A stretch of DNA of 64,000 nt, taken from positions 426,676 through 490,675 of the forward strand of contig JBILHA010000001.1 of NCBI GenBank assembly GCA_044350705.1, written 5' to 3'. How positions within the stretch are numbered: the stretch's first letter is position 1; the number at the start of each line of letters is the position of its first letter. The translations under genes were made by a program, and so were the position numbers. Shown here piece by piece: positions 19,689 through 47,645 of this stretch. The stretch comes from Candidatus Kapaibacterium sp. (lineage in GTDB: Bacteria; Patescibacteriota; Patescibacteriia; UBA9934). Below the pieces are notes generated by a model. That model saw only the letters and a list, made by a program, of their open reading frames with translations, was not told the origin of the DNA and made no database searches.

Positions 19689-20528
19689 TCATACAATTTC
19701 CCCCTTCTTCTTTCCAAACAAAAATGCTTCATCGCCAACTTTTTTTCTTGGACGAACGAAGAGCACTACACCATCATCTTCCACACCAACCTCCTCTCCC
19801 CCATCTTTTCCTATACATTGGCCGCGCGTAACCTCTTCAAAGTCAGCGAAGATTTTTTCTGGGTTGAAGGTATTTGTTTTTGTGTGATAGAGCGATTCCA
19901 TGTGTATCCATTCTTTGGGAGATTGCACGGGGGCATTTCCTGAAATATGGCCGCGCACTATGAGGAATGCATTCATCGCTTCTTTTGCACGCGCTACGCT
20001 TTCCGGATCGTTGATGTACCCTGCTTCAAAGCAAATTCCCACGCCGCCCTGCATGTTGATGTACCCGTCAGAACCACCCGGTTCGAGCGCATCAAATCCG
20101 CTCACCATGCGCTTTGCGGGGAACGTTGCCGCATATGCAAATGCGTGTGGCTCGCATATACAGAATGGTTCGCTTTCGGGGGAGTTGCTTGCGTGAATGT
20201 CGAGGAGTGCATCGACGCCTTCAAGGTCGGAAAGGATTTCTCGGGAGCGCGCGTACTCGTATGTACGCTTCACCTCATCGGAAACCGCATCTTCGGAACA
20301 GAACAAGCGATTGAGATTATATTCGACAAAGCGAACCCCTTCTTCGACCGCCTTTGGATTTCCCACAATAATACGCACCTCGCCTTTTTCGATAGTCTGC
20401 AAGTTCATTTCTTCTATTGCGCGTATACCGGCAAGCTCGTTTCCGTGTACCCCCACGAGAATTGCACTGACGTTTCCTAATTGTGTTCCTTTGAGAATTT
20501 TTGTGGGGGGAGTTTGATTCATAGACAA
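19689..20528 (-). CDS. Succinylglutamate desuccinylase/aspartoacylase (AstE/AspA) family zinc hydrolase
   Basis: VGVHGNELAG zinc-ligand motif. 279 aa. Confidence 0.75.
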   Translation of the reverse strand: MSMNQTPPTKILKGTQLGNVSAILVGVHGNELAGIRAIEEMNLQTIEKGEVRIIVGNPKAVEEGVRFVEYNLNRLFCSEDAVSDEVKRTYEYARSREILSDLEGVDALLDIHASNSPESEPFCICEPHAFAYAATFPAKRMVSGFDALEPGGSDGYINMQGGVGICFEAGYINDPESVARAKEAMNAFLIVRGHISGNAPVQSPKEWIHMESLYHTKTNTFNPEKIFADFEEVTRGQCIGKDGGEEVGVEDDGVVLFVRPRKKVGDEAFLFGKKKGEIV

Positions 20529-20714
20529 CGCCCCATTTTTTCAGATTTTCTCTCAATTGTAAAACCTCAATTTGTTTACCTTTACTTCTGTTCAAGATCT
20601 TTCAGTACCACCCCTTCTCCGGTCTTCCACTCCGTCCAGCCATTTGCGGAACGTGCGAGGACAATTGCGGCGGCGGCACTCGGAGAGGAGAAGAGGTGGT
20701 CTTGGGTGAAGATG

Positions 20715-21341
20715 CTAGGTCTCGATGAAATTTATCTCATCTTCGTATATGACGATCTTCTCAATTCCATCATTCCCAATTTTAACAATCTCATTTTTTA
20801 ATATTTTTCCATTCAAAAGATATCTACACCGTGCATTATTAACTTCATTTATTTCTTCGTGAGGATTTGATACTAAAAATATCCCTCTTGTAAGCTTTTT
20901 TGAGGCCTCCAGAAGCTTCCCAACTTCATCTTCTAAAAGATTTGTATTTTTATGAAAAACAATAATTAAACCATATGCATTTGTTTGTACTTTTTTCTTG
21001 TTTAAAATTTCTTTCAAAAATTCACTGAAAGTATTTTTATCTTTTTCATGAAATTCTTTAACGTCAAAAACAATACCTCTCATTCCATTAGAATCTCCGC
21101 ACGCAAAGATTACATCCCCTCTTTCTTCCTCAGGAAAGAAGAGTAAATGAGAGCATCCCTCAATGTCGTCAAAAAGTCTGCAGGCAAATAAGGAAAAATA
21201 TGCCTCTCTTATTTTTAAATATTTATGATTATTTAAAAAAATATCTTTATGCTTCTCTTTTGAATAAATCTCATGAAATATATTAAAAACACTGGATTGC
21301 GGAATGAGCCTTTTAACAGGAATGTCTCTATCTTGATTCAT
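20715..21341 (-). CDS. Hypothetical protein (208 aa) translationally coupled to the nuclease-helicase gene in the AT-rich island
   Basis: Its start overlaps the stop of the upstream helicase ORF by 14 nt. Very AT-rich codon usage. No recognisable motif. Confidence 0.5.
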
Positions 21342-23202
21342 GATTCATTGTTTTGATTTTTATTCTTTTTCTCACATACTCCTTTACGTTTTCATCCACA
21401 AAATACACATAACACCCCTTCATTCCACGTGACATGAGGACTTTGTAAATATTTCTCACAAGCTGGTTCATACGCTCGGGATTGTTTTTTAATCCCTTCT
21501 TTCCATTCGCATCTTTGTACTCATTCCATTTTGTAAAATACTCCATTTTTTCAGCATCAAACTGGAGGTCTTTCCCCACAATAACTCCCACATAATCGAA
21601 CTCAAGACCTTGCGATGTATGCACACATCCTGCTTGGTCAATACCGTCTCCATCAATTGCCCACGTCGTACCGATGCGACGAGAATTCCACGGCATACTG
21701 AAATCGTACTCTGGAATAACAATATCGTGATGATTTGCATCGGGATTTCCCGCATTTGCGGCCGTCCATTTCCATGCATATCCTGCAAGAACACGCGCAC
21801 TTTTACCTGCCGTTTGCTTCTTTTTTATCTCTGCAACTAATTCTTTCGGATCATCAAAGATGCGGAAATCAAATTTTTCCCTATCCCATCCGTCGTAGTT
21901 TGCAGTCTCGCGAATATGAAGTGTGTTATCAAGCCAATTCAAATATCCTTGAGCACCAGCGCAACGAAATTGCGCCTGTAACTCCACTTCAAATACTTCA
22001 GCACCCTCTTGTTTTACTACTCGCTTTATCTCCTCCACCGATCCCACATCATCCGGACGAATTACCTGATTATCATCAACGAAAAATATACTCACCTTTG
22101 CCGCGCGAACTATATCTTCCACCTGATTTTCTCCCTGATACATATAGGCTCCTGCTTTCTTCAAGCGATGAGCTTCATCTACGATCACTACATCAAATGC
22201 ATTCGCTTCTGTATCCACAAAACTTCCTGAACCTCTAAAAAGTGACTGGATGCGGTTCTTTGCATGCTCTTGTGCAAGTTTGTGCATGAGAACTGTTCTA
22301 AATGAAGCATTCGGCGCTACAAAAACTGCATTTTTTTCTTCTTTTAATAATCCCCCGAGAAGATTTACCGAAACGACCGATTTTCCCGTTCCCGGTCCGC
22401 CCTTAATAAGTACTACGGACTTTGATACATGCTTTAGCGCAACATGCTTTGCGGTCTCATATGCAATCTTTTGCTCATCCAAAAGCACAAACTCTTGATT
22501 TCCTTCAAGCATTCCTGAAACATGGTCAATAAGTTTTTTACTTGGACGAATACGACCATATTCAACTTCGTATAGAATATCGTCTCCGTTTCCCTTTCCT
22601 ACATACTTTTTCAAAAACTTCTCCAACTTCTCCTGATCATCCTTAAGATAGAGCGGTGCAAGATCTGTATGCTCTTTATATATCTCTGCTTCTAATGGTT
22701 CCGGATTTTGTCTTATGTAATTGTGAAGATAGGCGCACGCATGTGCATTAAGTTGCTTTGTTTCAATATTTTCATTGTAGTCTTCGAGATACATCTGATA
22801 TGAGCTCGCCTGATATGAAGGGTGTGTTGTTTCGCGTACAGCACCTCCGAGAAATGTTTTTACCAAACCATCCTTTTCGGTCGCCTCAGCTTTATCCCAT
22901 TGTTTAAGCTCAACAATGACGAAGTGTCTATTTCCTTCGTCATCATGTCCTGCTATAAAAAAATCGATGCGATTTGAAGTCGCAGGAATGACGTATTCAA
23001 TTAAAATGCCACATGTAGGATTAAGATCTGCACGCCGGACAATACGCTCCATATACTGCAAAGAGTTTGTCATTGCACGTTTTTCCGAAGGTGAAACCCT
23101 TCGCCCCAATCCATCTTCGAATGCCTTTTCTACAACATCGGCAATAATATTTCTATCAACGTATTCACGAAATTCTTCAAGCGTACTGCGATATAAAAAC
23201 AT
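21328..23202 (-). CDS. PD-(D/E)xK nuclease domain fused to a DUF2075-type SF1 helicase/ATPase (Nhi/Schlafen-like architecture)
   Basis: N-terminus GILIEYVIP...RIDFFIAGHDDEGNRHFVIVELKQW gives an E...D...ExK motif set. Walker A GGPGTGKS, Walker B VVIVDEAHRL, SF1 motif VI-like CVHTSQGLEFDYVGVIVG, and DUF2075-like AGYAWKW. Confidence 0.8.
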   Translation of the reverse strand: MFLYRSTLEEFREYVDRNIIADVVEKAFEDGLGRRVSPSEKRAMTNSLQYMERIVRRADLNPTCGILIEYVIPATSNRIDFFIAGHDDEGNRHFVIVELKQWDKAEATEKDGLVKTFLGGAVRETTHPSYQASSYQMYLEDYNENIETKQLNAHACAYLHNYIRQNPEPLEAEIYKEHTDLAPLYLKDDQEKLEKFLKKYVGKGNGDDILYEVEYGRIRPSKKLIDHVSGMLEGNQEFVLLDEQKIAYETAKHVALKHVSKSVVLIKGGPGTGKSVVSVNLLGGLLKEEKNAVFVAPNASFRTVLMHKLAQEHAKNRIQSLFRGSGSFVDTEANAFDVVIVDEAHRLKKAGAYMYQGENQVEDIVRAAKVSIFFVDDNQVIRPDDVGSVEEIKRVVKQEGAEVFEVELQAQFRCAGAQGYLNWLDNTLHIRETANYDGWDREKFDFRIFDDPKELVAEIKKKQTAGKSARVLAGYAWKWTAANAGNPDANHHDIVIPEYDFSMPWNSRRIGTTWAIDGDGIDQAGCVHTSQGLEFDYVGVIVGKDLQFDAEKMEYFTKWNEYKDANGKKGLKNNPERMNQLVRNIYKVLMSRGMKGCYVYFVDENVKEYVRKRIKIKTMNHESR

Positions 23203-23205
23203 ATT

Positions 23206-23571
23206 CTAAAGATCAGTATATTTCGTATGCACTCCTTTCGCTTTTTCTACAGGGTATTTCTCTTCATTCTTCCGCATCTTTTCTTCTAGTGCCGTAAAGA
23301 CATCAATATCAAAATCATGCGCCATAAGTAAAATCCAATAAAGCGTATCTGCGAGTTCCTCCCCCACCGCCTTCTTTTTATCCTCACGTTCAAGATACAT
23401 TTTCATTTCTTCTGCATTCTTCCACTGAAAATGTTCCATGACTTCAGTAGCTTCAAGTACTAAAGAGACCGCGAGGTCTTTTGGGTTATGAAATTGTTTC
23501 CAGTCGCGAGCATTGCGGAAGGCGATAATGCGCTGAGTCAAAGAATTAATATCCATCATATCTAGCTGCAA
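23206..23571 (-). CDS. MazG-like nucleoside-triphosphate pyrophosphohydrolase (all-alpha NTP-PPase)
   Basis: 121 aa. EELADTLYWILLMAHDFDIDV and LVLEATEVMEHFQW are typical MazG-domain helices. Its stop is 3 nt from the helicase start. Confidence 0.75.
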   Translation of the reverse strand: MQLDMMDINSLTQRIIAFRNARDWKQFHNPKDLAVSLVLEATEVMEHFQWKNAEEMKMYLEREDKKKAVGEELADTLYWILLMAHDFDIDVFTALEEKMRKNEEKYPVEKAKGVHTKYTDL

Positions 23572-23821
23572 TGGCGATACTTGTATTTTTTATAGCTTCC
23601 ATTGCAGTATTTTTTTTACCTATCTTTCAAAAAAACTTATAAGTTTTTCTCATTTATTTTGAGAATACCTTTCAGTCATATACTCGTCAATCGAGGTGGG
23701 CAATTAAAAATACCCTCGATTCGTACCATCAATATTTTTCAAAAAGGCTGTGAGACCCTTCCTTACGTCAGGGTCTTTCTTTACATCAGAGTCTTTTTTC
23801 TGCACATGATTGGAGCATACA

Positions 23822-23856
23822 AAAAACTCCAGGATTATTCCCGGAGTTTTTTTTAA
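23822..23856. terminator. Bidirectional rho-independent terminator (ctccagg-attatt-cccggag with A-run and T-run)
   Basis: Lies downstream of the HEPN-like gene on the minus strand. Separates it from the mazG-helicase operon promoter region. Confidence 0.55.
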
Positions 23857-23918
23857 CTCGTCTTTATTTTTAACTTTCTATATTTCTCTACTAACCTTCT
23901 TTGATCTTCGGCAGATTT

Positions 23919-24380
23919 TTATTTTGAAATCCCTGCATCAATCGCTATCTTTTTTCTTAAATTATTTAATACAATTCTCAATTCTTTCATTTTTTCCAAC
24001 GTAAGAATCATACTAAATTCAACCTCAAGATCTCTATTCTTCTGTGTTTTAAATTTTACCAACTGCATCATGCCATCTCCATCTATTTCTGCCATAATTC
24101 CATGTGCAAATGCATGTCTTAATTGCTTAAACTCCTCTGGAATTTTTATTTTTGGAAATTTGTCATTGAATTCTTCTATTATTTCTTCGAGCCGAATGAT
24201 AGAAAAGGCTTTTGGATAAACTTTATATACTTTTCCTTTCGCATAAGGGGGCTTGGGAAATTTCGATTCTTCCCCATCTTTTTTCGCAATTGCACACCTC
24301 ATAATGAATTCTATCGCGGCGATATCCCTTACTACCTCCCCCAGGCATTCAAAAAATTCTGAGATATCTTTTTTTTGCAT
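23919..24380 (-). CDS. Hypothetical protein with a HEPN-like Rx4H motif (LRHAFAHG)
   Basis: 153 aa. AT-rich. Immediately downstream of cysS. R-x4-H within a predicted helical region. Confidence 0.45.
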   Translation of the reverse strand: MQKKDISEFFECLGEVVRDIAAIEFIMRCAIAKKDGEESKFPKPPYAKGKVYKVYPKAFSIIRLEEIIEEFNDKFPKIKIPEEFKQLRHAFAHGIMAEIDGDGMMQLVKFKTQKNRDLEVEFSMILTLEKMKELRIVLNNLRKKIAIDAGISK

Positions 24381-24389
24381 ATATCTCCC

Positions 24390-25856
24390 TCAGGATGACA
24401 TGCGACTCTCCCTCACTCTCTGCCCCTTGGCAGTGTCTTCGACGGCGTAGCCTAATTCTGCCAACTGATCGCGGAGTTCGTCGGACTTTTGCCACTCTTT
24501 GGCGGCGCGGGCTTTTGCGCGGTCGTCGAGGAGCTTTTGCGCTTCATCGGTGATTTTTATAGGGCGAGCAACGACGTCTTCGAGGGCAAGACCGAGCACT
24601 TCATCCATTTTAAGCACGGTTGCGGATTTCACACCCGGAGCAAGGGTATCGTTATGCACGACTCCCCAAAAAATCGCGAGGGCACCCGGGGTGTCGAGGT
24701 CGTCGCGTATACGATCCATGAATGCGGTCATGCTTATTTCGTCGGCGTGCAGGTCGCCCGGCTTTGCCCAGTCACGGACTTCGTCGATGAGGTTGTTGAT
24801 CGCGTTTTGTGCGGCTTGCGCGGCATCGAAGGTGAAATTGAGATGCGTGCGGTAGTGTGCTCCCAAAAGGAAGAGGCGGAATGCGCGTGCGCTAATTCCC
24901 TTTTCGGCAAGTTCGTCGAGCGCGTACGTATTGCCAAGCGACTTACTCATTTTTCCGCCATCGACAAGCAAGAATTCGTTATGCATCCAAACGTTCGCTT
25001 CAAGGCATCCGCGTGCGGCATCGGTTTGTGCGAGTTCGTTTTCGTGGTGTACCGCAATGTGGTCAATGCCTCCCGTATGAATATCAAATGGAACGCCAAG
25101 GTACTTTTCCCCCATCGCAGAACATTCAATATGCCATCCGGGGAAGCCCTTGCCCCAAGGTGATTCCCATTCCATGTGACGCTTTGGCTGAGGCGATCCT
25201 GACGAAAGGAAGGATCCTTCGGTCGACTTTTTATCTCCCTCAGGATGACAAGGCTCGCTAAATTTCCAGAGTGCGAAATCTGCAGGGTTCTTTTTCTCTT
25301 CGTTTACGCCGATGCGTGCGCCTTCTTCTTTTTCAGACAGTGGCTGACGAGAAAGTTGCCCGTAGGAAGGAAGCTTGGACGTATCAAAATAGACGCCATC
25401 AGAAATGACGTATGCGAACCCGTTCTTCTCGATATCTTGAATCATGGTGATTTGCTCGGCGATGTGGTCGGTTGCGCGCGGCATGACATGCGGAAGCTGG
25501 ATGTTGAGCTTACCCAAGTCTTGCACGAAGAGATCGGTGTACTTTTTGGCGATATCCCACGCGGTCTCTCCGGTTTTCTTTGCGGCGACTTCCATTTTGT
25601 CATCGCCCTCCGATGCATCGTCAGTAAGGTGGCCGACGTCGGTGATGTTCATGACGTGGGTTACTTTGTATCCCTCAACTTCAAACATGCGGCGCAGGGT
25701 GTCGGCAAAAACGTAACTTCGGAGGTTACCAATGGAGGCGCGACCGTACACCGTAGGGCCACACACGTACATGCCGACCGTGTTAGGTTTTGCGGGAGTA
25801 AATGGACCCTGGGAGCGCGTAAGCGTGTTGTAGAGGGAAATCATAGCTTCCCGCAT
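24390..25856 (-). CDS. cysS: Cysteine--tRNA ligase
   Basis: HIGH-type motif (CGPTVYGRASIGN) and KMSKS (KMSKSLGN). 488 aa. Confidence 0.95.
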   Translation of the reverse strand: MREAMISLYNTLTRSQGPFTPAKPNTVGMYVCGPTVYGRASIGNLRSYVFADTLRRMFEVEGYKVTHVMNITDVGHLTDDASEGDDKMEVAAKKTGETAWDIAKKYTDLFVQDLGKLNIQLPHVMPRATDHIAEQITMIQDIEKNGFAYVISDGVYFDTSKLPSYGQLSRQPLSEKEEGARIGVNEEKKNPADFALWKFSEPCHPEGDKKSTEGSFLSSGSPQPKRHMEWESPWGKGFPGWHIECSAMGEKYLGVPFDIHTGGIDHIAVHHENELAQTDAARGCLEANVWMHNEFLLVDGGKMSKSLGNTYALDELAEKGISARAFRLFLLGAHYRTHLNFTFDAAQAAQNAINNLIDEVRDWAKPGDLHADEISMTAFMDRIRDDLDTPGALAIFWGVVHNDTLAPGVKSATVLKMDEVLGLALEDVVARPIKITDEAQKLLDDRAKARAAKEWQKSDELRDQLAELGYAVEDTAKGQRVRESRMSS

Positions 25857-43024: not shown

Positions 43025-43058
43025 CCCTGATAGGCGGATATTTTTTTCATGAGGTACA
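43025..43058 (+). terminator. Rho-independent terminator (atatccgcc-ctgat-aggcggatat + TTTTTTT)
   Basis: Perfect 9-bp stem about 40 nt after the giant gene stop. Confidence 0.6.
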
Positions 43059-43200
43059 GGTCCTTCACATCAAAACAAACTTCATGAAACATCGTCTTCA
43101 ATCTATATCACACTCTTTCACCTTCTTCTTGTCACGAAAACGCTCGGACAAGGTAGTCCCCACGTGGGACACCTCATCCGAGCGTACGGCTGGTTGCACT

Positions 43201-43653
43201 TCAGCTTTTTTTGTCAACTCGGTCGCTGAGCGCAAACCATGCCAGAGCGACGTCCAGATTGTATTCAATGAGCACGAGGCGCTTGCCTCGGTACTCACGC
43301 TCTTCCCCTTGCTTCGACACGCCTCGCAACGCTGCGGGAAGCGGTGGCACTCCCCACTGCTTTTCTGCCCCGGCATCGAGCGCGTATCCAATACAAGGAA
43401 CACCTAGCCGCCTGTCCGCGCCCGCAGTACATGGGAACTCGGCGGATCCTGCCCGCAGCACCGAGAGTCGCACCCTTTCCTCTCCTCGCGGAGGGGTCCG
43501 AGAGAAAAGCTCAGGAAATCGCCCGGCGATGTCTTGCCCTAGGTCACTCCCAAGATCAATCAACATCAGCTCATACAGTAATGCTCGCTCCCCCTCTCCT
43601 CTACAATCCCCCAATGCATCTGCAAAAGCTTGCCAACGTATAGATCGATACAC
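43201..43653 (-). CDS. Hypothetical protein in a GC-rich putative integrated element
   Basis: 150 aa ORF. Overlapping antisense ORFs exist, so the strand choice is uncertain. Confidence 0.3.
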   Translation of the reverse strand: MYRSIRWQAFADALGDCRGEGERALLYELMLIDLGSDLGQDIAGRFPELFSRTPPRGEERVRLSVLRAGSAEFPCTAGADRRLGVPCIGYALDAGAEKQWGVPPLPAALRGVSKQGEEREYRGKRLVLIEYNLDVALAWFALSDRVDKKS

Positions 43654-44221
43654 GGCACCTCTCCTTTATCGCTTTTCAGCGACTATGGAGTATAGCTGAT
43701 CCGCGCGAAAAACAACAACCGCAAAAAGCACTTTTTTTGAATTTGTCGGAATATTTCCAGATCCATGGTTTGAGACGCCTTTTTGTACACAATAAAAAAG
43801 GCCCATCACATGGATGGGTCTTTTTTGGTGACCCCGAAGCGAGCCAGCATGAACTACGTCGCCAAGTTAGAGGAGCTCGTGCCGTTTATCATGGCATGGA
43901 ATGGGGACGTTTCTCGGTTTTTACAGCGTCCCCGCGCATTGCAGCGTGTTGCGGTGACGTACTGAACGGGCGTAGAATGGAGACAGTAACCCTCAACAAA
44001 ACAGTATGACCCTCGACGGCGAAAGCAACATCAGCGACGTAGTACAGAACTTGCCCCAAGCAGCGCAACGCCCCGCAGATGCACCCGCAGGCACCGTGGT
44101 GACGGCGAACGGCCAGCGCGTGACCTTGGGGGAGGAAGGGCATCACAACGCCGCTATCTCCTCCCCTCAACAGGGCATGAACCTCACGGAGAAGTAGAAC
44201 AGAGCCAAAGAAAGCCAAGAT

Positions 44222-44632
44222 ATGACCAACCCTGCAATAAAAGAGCAGTTCGTAGAGCTTCGTGCCCAAGGCATGAGCTTTGCGGCTATTGCGGAGCGTC
44301 TTGGCGTTGCAAAGTCCACCCTCATCGCATGGAGCAAGGAGGCGGAGAATGACATCGGCAACCTGCGACAAATCTACGCGGAGGCACTACGAGAGAAATA
44401 CCGCATTGGAGCAGAGCGGCGGGTAGAGCTCTTTGCCAAGCAGCTCGATGCGGTGGAGGGAGAACTTACGAAACGCGACATGGCAACCATCCCGACAGAA
44501 CGCCTCTTTGACATGCTCTTGAAACTCGGACGCGAGATTGGCATCAACCCGCCCATGACCTTCAAGCAGAAAAAAATCGGTGCTGACTTCGATTTTGCCG
44601 ACCTCGCACCGACGGCAGAATGGCAGGCGTAG
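44222..44632 (+). CDS. Helix-turn-helix DNA-binding protein (phage small-terminase/excisionase-like N-terminus)
   Basis: HTH QGMSFAAIAERLGVAKSTLIAWSK. 136 aa. Confidence 0.5.
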   Translation: MTNPAIKEQFVELRAQGMSFAAIAERLGVAKSTLIAWSKEAENDIGNLRQIYAEALREKYRIGAERRVELFAKQLDAVEGELTKRDMATIPTERLFDMLLKLGREIGINPPMTFKQKKIGADFDFADLAPTAEWQA

Positions 44633-44796
44633 GTTGTTAGGTTATCTCCCACTTTCTGACCGTTCCGCTACCAAAAGACGACCGCCCGAAAGGTAGCCGT
44701 CTTTTGATTGTTTGAGCAAAAAGAAGACGCGCCCACGAGCCGAGGGCACCCGTGGGTGGGCGTCTCCTTGCGGCTTGGGCGCGAGGGTGTGTGGCG

Positions 44797-45354
44797 TCAG
44801 TAGAGCTCGACGAGGCGGTCGTGGATGCGGCGCAAGGCGACTTCTCCACCGCAGCGTTCCGTGATGACCACGCCTCGCACCTCGCCGCGCTCGATGGCGT
44901 TCACGAGGGGCGGTCGATGGTTGCGGTCGAGGTTGCAGTCGCACGAGACGATGTACACCGCCATCTGCTTCCCGAGCTGCTTCGCGAACGCCAGCGGAAC
45001 GTCGAAGCTCGACACCCCGACGTAGACGAAGGCCAGCCCGTAGCCGTTCGCGTCCACCCCGTCCGCGATGCCCTTCATGATGCCCGCCGCTTCGCCCATC
45101 TGCTCCACCGTGATGGGGGACACCATCACCACGAGCAGCGGCGGCGGTTCGAAGTAGCCGCTCTGCACGTGGATGGTGAGGTTGTCCTTCGGAGAGTAGG
45201 CGCCCGCCTCGATGCCGCGGACACTGTTGTACGTAGCGAAGAGCACGTTGCGGGGCGCATCCTTGACGGCTTGCGCGAGACCTTCACGAAGAAAATCGTC
45301 GATGGAAACCAGCGGGTGCATGGGCACCTCCATTCGCACATCCGTGGTACTCAC
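44797..45354 (-). CDS. Hypothetical protein (185 aa) in the putative integrated element
   Basis: Protein-like composition, whereas the antisense 230-aa ORF is Arg/His-rich GC-artefact-like. Alternating beta-alpha pattern suggests a Rossmann-like fold. Confidence 0.4.
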   Translation of the reverse strand: MSTTDVRMEVPMHPLVSIDDFLREGLAQAVKDAPRNVLFATYNSVRGIEAGAYSPKDNLTIHVQSGYFEPPPLLVVMVSPITVEQMGEAAGIMKGIADGVDANGYGLAFVYVGVSSFDVPLAFAKQLGKQMAVYIVSCDCNLDRNHRPPLVNAIERGEVRGVVITERCGGEVALRRIHDRLVELY

Positions 45355-45449
45355 GGAAGGGTCGATTTACGACGCATCAGAATACCACAAAATGGCCGCT
45401 TCGTCAATCGCAAGGCAGTTGTTTTCGTGATAAACTGGCCGTAATCTGT

Positions 45450-47123
45450 ATGCCCTCCGAAACCCTCCCCAGCCCATCCGAACGCGTGGCAGAGCTTGTA
45501 ACGCGTCTACAGGCACGATTTGGGAGGAAGGACGGGGAAAGTGACGGCGAGGAGGCAAAAGCCATTCGGTACGTCATATACGTCCGTAAAAGCACCGACA
45601 CGGCGGAAAAGCAGGAGCGGAGCATTGCCGACCAGACGGCAGAGTGTAAACAGCTTGCCGATCGCCTCGGCTTGCGGTGGGTGGACGTCATCCACGAGGA
45701 ACAGTCGGCCATGGTGTCCGACGGTCGCCCACTTTTCTGCGCCATGCTCAACGAGCTCAAACACGGCGACAGCTACGAGGGCATCATCGCGTGGGCACCT
45801 GACCGCCTTGCCCGCAACATGAAGGAAGGCGGCGAGATAATCGACATGCTCGACCACGGGGACATTCAAGACATCAAGTTCGCCAACAACTTCGTCTACA
45901 ACAACGACCCTTCGGGCAAAATGCTTCTTGGCATTGCGTTCATCATGGCGAAGCAGTACAGCGACCAACACTCGCAAAACGTCACCCGCGCCATTCGCCA
46001 CAAGACGGCAGAAGGCAAATGGGCAGGCAGTCACCTCAAACATGGCTACTGGAAAGATAAACTGCACTACCTGCGCCCCGACGGGGAGAACCACGAGCTC
46101 ATCAAGGACGTGTTTCGGATGCGCATTAAGGGCAAATCGCTCAAAGAGATAGCCGACCACCTCGTAGAACGCGGCTATCCTGTCCCAACTGTCCATACCA
46201 AGCACCGTGCATTGAAAATCGACGACAAGTTCGTGTCGGGCATTTTGCATGATGCCTTTTATGTCGGTGCCATGAAGTTCGGCGACCAGTACGAAAATCT
46301 CTTTGACAAGTATGACTTCGTGCCCGCTGTGTCCATGGACGACTACGAGAAGCTGTACGGGCAGGACGGCGGCAAGACGGGCATCAACCTCGCCAAAGTG
46401 TTTACACCGCGCGAGGAAACGCAGGCCGCCCTCATGCAGCAGTTCGCCATCTGCGGCCATTGTGGACACTTCCTGTCCACGGGTATTACCAAAAACCTCT
46501 ACTATCTGCGTTGCGACTACAAAAAGCAGGGTTGCCCGATGGGTGGCAAGTCAATCCGTGCAAAAGACATCCTCGCTCCACTCCTCGACTTTCTCAAACA
46601 CCACCCACTCCTCACCGAGAAGGGATACGAGCGCTACACGGCAGAAATGGCGAAAGTGTTGGCCGAGAAGGAAAAGGAGTGCGACAACACGCTCCGCTCA
46701 CTCATGGCGCAGAAGCGGCAGGCGGAAATGCGGGTCGAAGACATGAAGGAACTCATCCGCAGGGACAAGGGCGATAAGGTGCTTGAACGCGAATACAAAG
46801 CCGACCTCAAAATGCATATCGCAAAGGGGCAAGAACTCGGCAAAAAGATAGCCAAACTCAAAGCGCAGAAAGAGAACGCGAAAGACGCTATTGCCACCTA
46901 CGCAGAGTTTCATGAACTCTTCCAAAACATCGCTGAACTCATACCAAAAATGGACAACATGGCCGAGTTGGATTTCATCATCAAAAAACTCTTCATGAAC
47001 GTCACCGTCACCAACCAAAAAGTGACTAACATAACACAAAACTCCCCTTTCAGGGAGCTCTGTGGGACGCCGAACTCGGCGATGGTGACTCCACGGAGAA
47101 TCGAACTCCGATTTAAGGCTTGA
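45450..47123 (+). CDS. Large serine recombinase (resolvase/integrase family)
   Basis: N-terminal catalytic domain YVIYVRKSTDTAEKQERSIADQ...WAPDRLARN, recombinase domain, zinc-ribbon (CGHCGH...C...C), coiled-coil C-terminus. The last ~14 codons of the ORF overlap tRNA-Glu on the opposite strand, so the true stop may be earlier. Confidence 0.85.
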   Translation: MPSETLPSPSERVAELVTRLQARFGRKDGESDGEEAKAIRYVIYVRKSTDTAEKQERSIADQTAECKQLADRLGLRWVDVIHEEQSAMVSDGRPLFCAMLNELKHGDSYEGIIAWAPDRLARNMKEGGEIIDMLDHGDIQDIKFANNFVYNNDPSGKMLLGIAFIMAKQYSDQHSQNVTRAIRHKTAEGKWAGSHLKHGYWKDKLHYLRPDGENHELIKDVFRMRIKGKSLKEIADHLVERGYPVPTVHTKHRALKIDDKFVSGILHDAFYVGAMKFGDQYENLFDKYDFVPAVSMDDYEKLYGQDGGKTGINLAKVFTPREETQAALMQQFAICGHCGHFLSTGITKNLYYLRCDYKKQGCPMGGKSIRAKDILAPLLDFLKHHPLLTEKGYERYTAEMAKVLAEKEKECDNTLRSLMAQKRQAEMRVEDMKELIRRDKGDKVLEREYKADLKMHIAKGQELGKKIAKLKAQKENAKDAIATYAEFHELFQNIAELIPKMDNMAELDFIIKKLFMNVTVTNQKVTNITQNSPFRELCGTPNSAMVTPRRIELRFKA

Positions 47124-47156
47124 GAAGCCTCTGTCCTAACCGTTAGACGATGGAGC
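47082..47156 (-). tRNA. tRNA-Glu (anticodon CUC)
   Basis: Manually folded cloverleaf: acceptor GGCTCCA/TGGAGTC (one G-U pair), D-arm TCGTCTAACGGTTAGGAC, anticodon arm GAGGC-TTCTCAA-GCCTT, T-arm CGGAG-TTCGATT-CTCCG, encoded CCA. Confidence 0.65.
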
Positions 47157-47420
47157 CTGAAATATATTGAGCCGTTCGCGTTTGATGCGATTCTTTATTG
47201 CCTTACGGATTATTCCCGATCTTTTTATCTGACGCTCACGTTTCGCTGCTTCGCTTTTTGTTGCAAACTCTTCTTTATGTATTACCCCATAAGGAGCATA
47301 CGGTGCAGATGAAATGACTTTTCCCGAGTTATGTATCGCGAGTCTCTCTTCAAGATTTGCGGTATGGCCAATGTACCATCGCCCATTCTTCTGACTTTCG
47401 AGAATGTACACGATATACAT
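47136..47420 (-). CDS. GIY-YIG nuclease family protein (small UPF0213/COG2827-like)
   Basis: MYIVYILESQKNGRWYIGHTANLEERLAIHNSG is a GIY-YIG motif. 94 aa. Its 3' end overlaps the 5' end of tRNA-Glu. Confidence 0.7.
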   Translation of the reverse strand: MYIVYILESQKNGRWYIGHTANLEERLAIHNSGKVISSAPYAPYGVIHKEEFATKSEAAKRERQIKRSGIIRKAIKNRIKRERLNIFQAPSSNG

Positions 47421-47512
47421 ATCGAGATTTGTCCCCGGCTACTTCGGCACGCATGTCTTTGCCGAAGGCCGGGTCCGGCCGTCCGGTTTTTATCTTTCCG
47501 GACGTAGCCGGA

Positions 47513-47534
47513 CTAACCGTTAGACGATGGAGCC
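47513..47534. repeat. 22-nt direct repeat copy of the tRNA-Glu 5' end (ctaaccgttagacgatggagcc), identical to 47135-47156
   Basis: Read directly. The two copies flank the GIY-YIG gene. Confidence 0.7.
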
Positions 47535-47645
47535 CGAATGGCATCTGACGTGCGCCAAGATACCATCTCTTCTTTGTTTTCGCAAGCCATAATCCTCCAC
47601 AGGATTCTCTCGACCAAATACGCTTATCTGCTATAACAGAAGCCT

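Follow-up and report, generated by a model that had tools for sequence, protein, structure and literature searches.

We report that a 64,000-nucleotide stretch of contig JBILHA010000001.1 (assembly GCA_044350705.1; hereafter the window) carries, at positions 43826-47089, what is very probably an integrative element of 3.26 kb that has inserted at the very 3' end of a tRNA-Glu(CUC) gene in Candidatus Uhrbacteria (Patescibacteria, or candidate phyla radiation, CPR). In this reading, the attachment site of the free element (attP) lies inside the open reading frame (ORF) of the element's own large serine recombinase (LSR), and the C-terminus of the enzyme depends on whether the element is integrated. 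More tentatively, and with appreciable doubt, we propose that this is the first bacterial serine-recombinase example of an "attP inside integrase" design, and that it works as a self-sensing directionality switch in which the enzyme made from the circle would integrate and the chromosomal one would excise or stay quiet. The proposal extends to a Patescibacteria-wide family that would target the 3' ends of nine or more tRNA types and supply the tRNA with a new terminator.

The limits of the element emerge from comparison with related loci (numbered with the prefix L). DNA homology to L005 and L008 is limited to 43818-44720 and 45361-47157. On the left edge, the window, L005 and L008 each show a host-specific hairpin of their own followed by conserved sequence (TGGTGACCCCGAAGCGAGCC / TGGTGACCCCGAAGCGAGCCAGC...). 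On the right edge, comparison of three related loci with the window shows the 3' end of the recombinase gene running into TGGTGAC, which on the minus strand is the tRNA terminus GTCACCA. This heptamer forms a direct repeat, with an attL core at 43826..43832 and an attR core at 47083..47089, and the copy far from the tRNA abuts the host-specific tRNA terminator, as befits an element inserted in a tRNA gene. We place the start of the element at 43826, where homology to relatives and the copy of the tRNA 3' end have their common left limit. Judged by these sequence comparisons, the crossover falls within TGGTGAC, the last 7 nt of the tRNA. The block of identity shared by the att sites measures 7 bp here, 8-11 bp in relatives whose junctions were found automatically and 4-11 bp in relatives as a whole. 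A dyad-symmetry scan of the reconstructed attP and of the reconstructed empty chromosomal site (attB) revealed no clear symmetry and was uninformative. The target tRNA-Glu(CUC) gene (47083..47157, minus strand; ARAGORN) is intact, and its 3' part is overlapped by the recombinase ORF over 41 nt.

The composition of this segment is clearly foreign by base usage. The GC content of 43826-47089 is 0.566 (top 0.7% of 3.26-kb windows), compared with 0.501 for the whole window, and GC content at third codon positions (GC3) is 0.64-0.87 in the element genes versus 0.40-0.51 in the flanking host genes, which encode a giant surface protein, GlmS, a Mur ligase and a GIY-YIG protein. The adjoining segment 43050-43825, which includes a 150-aa ORF (43201..43653, minus strand), lies outside the element, since none of the related loci has a counterpart of the ORF, whose GC3 of 0.54 is host-like; an exact-protein look-up of this ORF returned no record. 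A preliminary description of this DNA had proposed a GC-rich integrated element of about 4.1 kb, bounded on the left by a terminator at 43025-43058 and ending in a 557-aa LSR with a catalytic Ser, a zinc ribbon and a coiled coil, whose 3' end faces a minus-strand tRNA-Glu(CUC) and overlaps it by about 40 nt. The core of that reading holds, as do the recombinase assignment (Pfam, PHROG 95, invariant residues and structural model) and the overlap with the tRNA. The left boundary, however, has to move to 43826, where both homology and the direct repeat begin; the size comes down to 3.26 kb; and the GC enrichment applies to 43826-47089. The search for attachment sites that had been suggested led to the TGGTGAC repeat at 43826-43832 and 47083-47089.

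The enzyme at the center of this arrangement (45450..47123, plus strand; 557 aa in its integrated "short" form) belongs to the LSR family according to all sequence and fold tests that we ran. It matches the Pfam domains Resolvase (PF00239, 1.7e-22, residues 42-191) and Recombinase (PF07508, 4.8e-08), scores 22.7 bits against Zn_ribbon_recom (PF13408), just below the cutoff of 25.3, and matches PHROG 95, annotated "integrase", at 2e-58. Residues S48, R46, Y41 and Y44 are invariant among 30 recombinase homologues. The zinc-ribbon cysteines C335, C338, C355 and C362 are invariant as well. An AlphaFold model based on 32 sequences, with a mean predicted local distance difference test score (pLDDT) of 78, reproduces the LSR domain order and places coiled-coil helices 390-438 and 443-480 as an insertion between zinc-ribbon strands. 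The top Foldseek matches in the PDB are the serine integrase-att complexes 9y66/9dxh (E 1e-19), Bxb1, phiC31 and the LI integrase 4kis, with E values from 1e-19 to 1e-8; phmmer found no PDB chain with the recombinase as query, sequence similarity being too low. The nearest homologues come from Candidatus Uhrbacteria and other Patescibacteria. Residues 1-38 (45450-45590) form an N-terminal extension ahead of the catalytic domain, with a conserved helix A.LV.RLQA.FG (helix 9-24 in the model); to our knowledge, phage LSRs begin directly at the catalytic beta-strand.

The last 13 residues of the integrated enzyme, MVTPRRIELRFKA, are a reading of the antisense strand of the tRNA. When the right end of the element is joined to its left end, the recombinase frame instead continues into a "tail" ORF of 45 codons plus a stop (VTPKRASMNYVAKLEELVPFIMAWNGDVSRFLQRPRALQRVAVTY; 43828..43965, plus strand), which gives a protein ending ...NSAMVTPKRASMNYVAKLEELVPFIMAWNGDVSRFLQRPRALQRVAVTY with a total length of 590 aa. 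The junction of this reconstructed attP is predicted to read GAACTCGGCGATGGTGACCCCGAAGCGAGCCAGC, and the reconstructed empty attB GGATGGGTCTTTTTTGGTGACTCCACGGAGAATCG. From many loci, we infer that attP lies within the recombinase ORF and that the enzyme would be 590 aa in the free form and 557 aa in the integrated form, an argument built from attL and attR sequences rather than from a sequenced circle. The integrated form keeps all catalytic, DNA-binding and recognised LSR domains; it loses the last ~43-46 residues and gains the 13 residues read from the tRNA. We read the 41 nt shared with the tRNA gene as the mark of an attachment site inside the recombinase frame and not as an incidental feature.

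Junctions were analysed in a subset of 334 genome matches and 605 protein matches. Those found automatically, as the longest common substring, were in frame in 18 of 18 cases. This method failed at cores of 4-6 bp, hence nine further loci were inspected by eye; eight of these were also in frame, the exception being L068, whose junction stayed unresolved. Altogether, 26 of 27 junctions, covering nine tRNA specificities, preserve the frame, where chance would give one third. In-frame reconstruction at tRNA-Glu loci yielded, in 10 of 10 cases, a tail with a constant length of 46 residues and the motif WN.(D/E)(V/I)..FL...VTY, which in the window appears as MVTPK...WNGDV..FL...VAVTY. Moreover, codon comparisons indicate purifying selection on the tail frame: the four closest elements show 53 synonymous and 12 non-synonymous differences, and across six elements the ratio of synonymous to non-synonymous differences is 140:168 in the tail frame versus 27:283 and 31:277 in the other two. 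A hidden Markov model of the tail recognised it at 45 loci, always 5' of the recombinase, on the same strand and ending at a stop codon.

These data also bear on whether the tail could be an independent small gene, for instance an excisionase-like one, in frame with the recombinase merely as a by-product of an attP located beside the int stop. Gene callers do annotate a separate ORF of 51-76 aa with a start in the host flank, and in the tRNA-Glu group an ATG immediately precedes the core. The called starts, however, sit in non-conserved host DNA, inside the terminators. An independent start is unlikely because the internal Met is not conserved (M, T or S; ACG in L008) and distant members have no Met near the junction, and these members nonetheless share the in-frame position and constant tail length. 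We therefore judge a separate tail gene to be quite improbable.

A third type of C-terminus (...MVTLRRLPWNQFMEEL...) was seen in L016 (8620-8720) and in the database proteins P0008, P0018 and P0224, where unrelated genes in an AT-rich block come after TGGTGAC, in the place of a tRNA or a standard tail. Here, a heterologous element has probably inserted between the element and the tRNA.

Integration at this position leaves the tRNA whole and carries its own terminator away. The native terminator lies in host DNA directly left of the element (43793..43825, minus strand), where a terminator scan located a hairpin on the minus strand (43818..43802, CCCATCCATGTGATGGG) with a T run behind it, as in an intrinsic terminator; insertion has moved it 3.26 kb from the tRNA, to the left junction. 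A second terminator-like hairpin with a U-rich tract is embedded in the recombinase codons for ITQNSPFRELC, a highly conserved peptide (47025..47064, minus strand), with a 13-pair stem at 47064..47035 and then UUUUGUGUUAU. It shares the strand of the tRNA, begins 19 nt beyond the tRNA 3' terminus and lies within the 3' end of the recombinase gene. All of the tRNA-Glu group and some tRNA-Pro elements have this hairpin. In L018, L024 and L032, synonymous changes come in pairs that leave it intact, and L030 and L081 retain it despite a different peptide. We infer that the embedded hairpin is a putative terminator supplied by the element in replacement of the displaced native one.

A smaller minus-strand hairpin, GCCGA-GTT-TCGGC, occupies positions 47068-47082, immediately past the tRNA 3' end and to the left of the att core, which it borders. 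In relatives, it persists through paired changes (ACCGA/TCGGT, ACAGA/TCTGT, GCAGA../..CTGC) while the peptide varies (PNSAM, TDSVM, AESAM); the consensus fold of the alignment did not include it. It could serve in tRNA 3' processing or be part of the P arm or of the terminator.

The element belongs to a family that is widespread in Patescibacteria. We examined 85 loci, comprising 80 from one genome per species, the window and four metagenome-assembly loci. In 63 of them, the end of the recombinase ORF falls within a tRNA gene on the minus strand, and in three more the ORF reads right through such a gene; most of the remainder are cut by contig ends or lie within tandem arrays. The closest relatives target tRNA-Glu, with an overlap of exactly 41 nt in 14 of 17, and more distant relatives target tRNA genes for Leu, Val, Pro, Asp, Ala, Arg, Met or Gln. 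In an alignment of 30 proteins, nearly all C-termini read ...S[AV]MVTPRGIEPRF.., which is again tRNA antisense sequence. Elements of the family measure 2.9-5.8 kb.

Several features of these loci point to mobility, as judged from comparative sequence data. At L005, tRNA-Glu(UUC) hosts a recombinase with 79% identity together with the same core genes, flanked by genes for an AI-2E transporter and a TrmB-family protein; L005 and L012 show the family at tRNA-Glu(UUC) in unrelated gene contexts; and L012 and L011 each carry two different elements in tandem at one tRNA. When the window is compared with the syntenic locus L008, the element proteins are 82-86% identical, whereas the neighbouring GlmS is only 66% identical. 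Relocated relatives, tandem arrays, this low divergence relative to GlmS and the foreign composition together suggest that the element moves. It had been anticipated that synteny in all relatives, with no empty site and with homogeneous codon usage, would speak against an integrated element. What we found is that some relatives are syntenic (L008, L032) and that no empty site turned up, while codon usage is clearly heterogeneous and other tRNA sites are occupied. A vertically inherited, domesticated recombinase cassette, fixed beside tRNA-Glu in Uhrbacteria and immobile here, would fit several facts: L008 and L032 are occupied at the very same tRNA-Glu(CUC)-glmS locus, L011 has the upstream Na+/H+ exchanger context, and no more than that, in common with the window, no empty site was found, and the sequence is identical in five metagenomes. 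Nevertheless, the gap in identity between element proteins and GlmS, the strongly deviant GC3, the different slot contents of syntenic loci and the presence of close relatives at another tRNA, in other contexts and in tandem arrays leave this explanation with very little probability.

Four other assemblies (L001-L004) are 100% identical to the window. In two of them, L003 (ENA ERZ27272086) and L004 (JGI 3300034023), which are independent of each other, the contigs start at the same base (window 46837/46838), in the coiled-coil region of the recombinase. This suggests a branch in the assembly graph, caused for example by co-occurring strains with a different or recombinant element that shares the last 290 bp. 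The tandem at L012 (6157-14725) consists of two elements at tRNA-Glu(UUC). Its element A, of ~5.5 kb, carries extra cargo that includes a secreted 288-aa protein, which, read by eye, may have an HNH-like C-terminal motif; the recombinase of element A is full length only through reading into the tail of element B.

It is tempting to hypothesize that the tail swap ties the properties of the enzyme to the state of the element. The long form encoded by the circle would drive integration between attP and attB, and the short form encoded by the chromosome, together with a 63-aa protein and/or a helix-turn-helix (HTH) protein of the element acting as directionality factor, would perform or permit excision. 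Alternatively, the short form could be a weakened enzyme that stabilises the insertion. In work on fusions of integrases with recombination directionality factors (RDFs), an RDF attached at the C-terminus of an LSR reportedly functions and reprograms the direction of the reaction. Structures of LSR complexes show this C-terminus on the zinc-ribbon domain, close to where RDFs bind (10.1101/2025.05.02.651858). By analogy, a tail near the zinc ribbon could tune the coiled-coil/RDF machinery, and the swap may well be functionally important. A role as a degron, as in mycobacteriophage integration-dependent immunity, is also possible.

A number of observations weigh against this overall picture. The crossover is narrowed to the shared block and not to a dinucleotide. 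Covariation in support of the embedded hairpin is thin, with 2 compensatory pairs in the alignment. An AlphaFold model of the 590-aa form gives the tail a pLDDT below 50 and thus no structural support for docking. Natural long ORFs occur in tandem arrays or in a decayed remnant and in no circle, and neither exact-protein look-ups nor pattern scans returned an empty attB site or a circular form of the window element. Finally, the occupation of the tRNA-Glu(CUC)-glmS locus in L008 and L032 allows for some vertical inheritance. Concerning the searches, exact-protein look-ups with GlmS, the recombinase or the 51-aa ORF as query led to the same integrated arrangement and to nothing else. A degenerate pattern for all four att configurations found no matches in the JGI metagenome collection, even to the integrated junctions; this null result is uninformative, because the missing integrated junctions mean that the strain is absent from the collection.

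The contiguous long ORFs in databases are P0029 (590 aa) and P0041 (607 aa), both from heterologous tandem arrays in which the recombinase of one element reads into the left end of the next; a third case, L097, is decayed. Two candidates for a circle were rejected: L097, a 3.9-kb contig retrieved with an attP-specific pattern, proved to be a decayed tandem remnant, and the long ORF at the contig end of L011 has a tail that differs from its own attL tail and represents a heterologous tandem. That every contiguous long ORF comes from a tandem array and that no circle was detected would also be expected if the tail were essential and the 557-aa form inactive. Integration would then be a one-way trap until a second element in tandem restored the full gene, following the tandem-restoration model of SSV-type integrases (PMC7253208). 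In this scenario, integrated copies are dead ends and should decay, yet the integrated ORFs are intact up to the tRNA in at least 63 of 85 loci and the tails are intact in 45, a mild argument against it; moreover, only the last ~43 residues are lost and every recognised LSR domain is kept. We consider such a trap unlikely, albeit deserving of attention, and retain as our working proposal the switch in which both forms of the recombinase have a role.

Apart from the recombinase and its tail, the element has a simple organization. From left to right, it comprises the tail ORF, a 63-aa ORF, a 136-aa HTH gene, a variable slot with cargo on the opposite strand, and the recombinase gene. The 63-aa protein (44006..44197, plus strand) has no family match; tblastn found it at 16 related loci with 34-90% identity, always between the tail and the HTH gene, and it is a candidate cofactor. 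The HTH protein (44222..44632, plus strand; Pfam HTH_23 at 1.3e-05, HTH_Tnp_1, HTH_7) was found by tblastn at 21 related loci with 39-85% identity and is a candidate regulator or directionality factor. Both genes are core rather than cargo, because they recur at 16 and 21 related loci. The variable slot (44720..45361) is defined by homology to L005 and L008, which stops at ~44715-44720 and resumes at ~45361-45459; elsewhere, the slot holds a 370-aa LysM-like gene (L005) or a 99-aa gene (L008).

In the window, the slot contains one cargo gene on the minus strand (44797..45321; GC3 0.87). Its maximal ORF extends to 45354 (185 aa), and its start is probably at M12, giving 174 aa. This ORF is antisense to another, 44752..45444 on the plus strand, and we take the minus-strand ORF (44797..45354) as the real gene because of its homologues, one of them 56-60% identical and ~99-100 remote. 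The family counts ~99 representatives at E<=1e-3 (P0122-P0220), is roughly 200 aa long, has an invariant Tyr, Gly and three Cys (CxC...CGG) and is predicted to alternate strands and helices (alpha/beta). Neither the protein nor its family matched Pfam, NCBIfam, PHROG, PADLOC or the PDB, including in profile searches against PDB and NCBIfam; two family members weakly match the HpnJ radical-SAM model. For the cargo protein, the AlphaFold model built on a 2-sequence alignment reached a pLDDT of 56 and was too poor for a fold search. A promoter-like site (TTGACG-17-TATTCT with an extended -10 TG; 45379..45407, minus strand) lies upstream of the cargo gene and is a consensus match only. The preliminary description had recognised the HTH protein, which Pfam now supports, and had listed it with two unknown proteins as cargo. 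That list has to be redrawn, since the HTH gene is core and the 150-aa ORF falls outside the element, which leaves one lineage-specific cargo gene (174/185 aa). The same description had called antisense ORFs in this region ambiguous, and for the pair at the slot homologues have settled the matter.

The gene content also allows us to consider a remnant of a prophage or phage satellite. The best PHROG match of the recombinase is indeed "integrase", and the HTH protein weakly matches PHROGs of phage regulators and small terminases. The 3.26 kb, however, holds five ORFs with no match to a structural PHROG and no replication or packaging genes; intact relatives are of the same size range; and only 3 remote relatives (<=31-32% identity) were found among 2.9 million IMG/VR contigs. 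A phage origin of this kind thus appears highly implausible.

The region on the other side of the tRNA is unusual in its own right. A 94-aa GIY-YIG gene (47136..47420, minus strand) has its stop codon inside tRNA-Glu, at nt 20-22, and its C-terminus ...SSNG is encoded by tRNA nt 1-22. A second copy of tRNA nt 1-22(26) is found at 47513-47538, beyond a 92-nt GC-rich leader, which makes this a 377-bp repeat-flanked unit (47136-47538 region). L028 (8631-9240) has the same design, with a 5' tRNA fragment (nt 1-35), a leader, a GIY-YIG gene ending in ...SSNG, a complete tRNA-Glu and a terminator; it also has a 20-nt remnant of the tRNA 3' end at the end of the recombinase gene, after the terminator. 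Overlapping ORFs cover the tRNA gene of the window except for 12 nt (47124-47135). The GIY-YIG unit resembles a further selfish cassette, one that enters tRNA-Glu loci and either brings the tRNA with it or restores it. A group I intron was considered for the duplicated 5' fragment and rejected, since the breakpoint lies at nt 22 here but at nt 35 in L028, and since the fragment is followed by a complete tRNA. Farther away, a 4-kb block at 20500-24500 with a GC content of 0.35-0.43, compared with ~0.50 elsewhere in the window, and a strongly negative GC skew may be another foreign insertion.

Patescibacteria combine tiny genomes with a short list of described mobile elements and a nearly complete lack of genetic tools, and a compact recombinase with short sites in universal tRNA genes is a natural candidate for such a tool. 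Control of directionality is a central open issue for LSRs, and a C-terminus that is rewritten by the enzyme's own reaction would offer a testable model with two proteins (590 and 557 aa) and four sites. Additionally, replacing the terminator instead of the tRNA end would be another harmless way to use a tRNA gene. Our findings also indicate that the C-terminus of this family is systematically miscalled, with databases holding tRNA-antisense ends (...MVTPRGIEPRF) and orphan "hypothetical proteins" of 50-76 aa.

With regard to known systems, the literature that we surveyed contains no tRNA-targeting serine integrases in CPR and no attP inside a serine integrase ORF, a survey of incomplete coverage that gives absence of evidence only; the LSR survey of Durrant et al. 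makes no mention of tRNA. As far as this literature goes, an attP inside an integrase gene had been described only for archaeal tyrosine integrases, and the serine version is new. The recombinase shares with the LSRs of phiC31, Bxb1, A118/LI, SPbeta and TP901-1 a catalytic domain, a recombinase domain and a zinc ribbon with an inserted coiled coil, the conserved catalytic Ser and four zinc Cys, and short att sites with few bases in common. It differs from them in targeting tRNA 3' ends, in its ~38-aa N-terminal extension and in having attP in the ORF, and its carriers are 3-6-kb Patescibacteria elements rather than phages or integrative and conjugative elements.

The closest parallel in design is with SSV-type integrases, in which attP lies within the ORF, integration into a tRNA gene partitions the integrase gene, and tandem insertion restores a full and sometimes hybrid gene, a type described as "so far restricted to archaea" (PMC7253208). 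The likeness, an attP in the element's own integrase ORF, rests here on the in-frame junctions and on selection on the tail, and would extend this design beyond archaeal tyrosine integrases. SSV-type enzymes are, however, archaeal tyrosine recombinases that are split into two inactive pseudogenes, whereas the present enzyme is a bacterial serine recombinase whose domains stay together in one ORF. The mycobacteriophages BPs, Brujita and Charlie likewise have attP inside a coding sequence, use the C-terminus swap as a switch and target a tRNA gene (PMC3694055). In that system, a tyrosine integrase splits the repressor gene, which loses an ssrA-like degradation tag; here, the integrase itself is split, its tail ends in ...VAVTY, and the HTH gene at 44222..44632 is not crossed by the junction, unlike a repressor of the BPs type. 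Compared with engineered phiC31 and Bxb1 integrase-RDF fusions, which are man-made and have a complete RDF joined through a long linker, the window element has a natural 46-residue tail that would be switched by recombination itself. Lastly, tycheposons and similar small cargo elements of reduced genomes also sit at tRNA genes, combine a constant core with an exchangeable cargo slot and form tandem arrays; tycheposons use tyrosine recombinases and carry a replacement tRNA segment. In contrast to them, the elements described here share 7-11 bp with the tRNA and appear to supply a replacement terminator.

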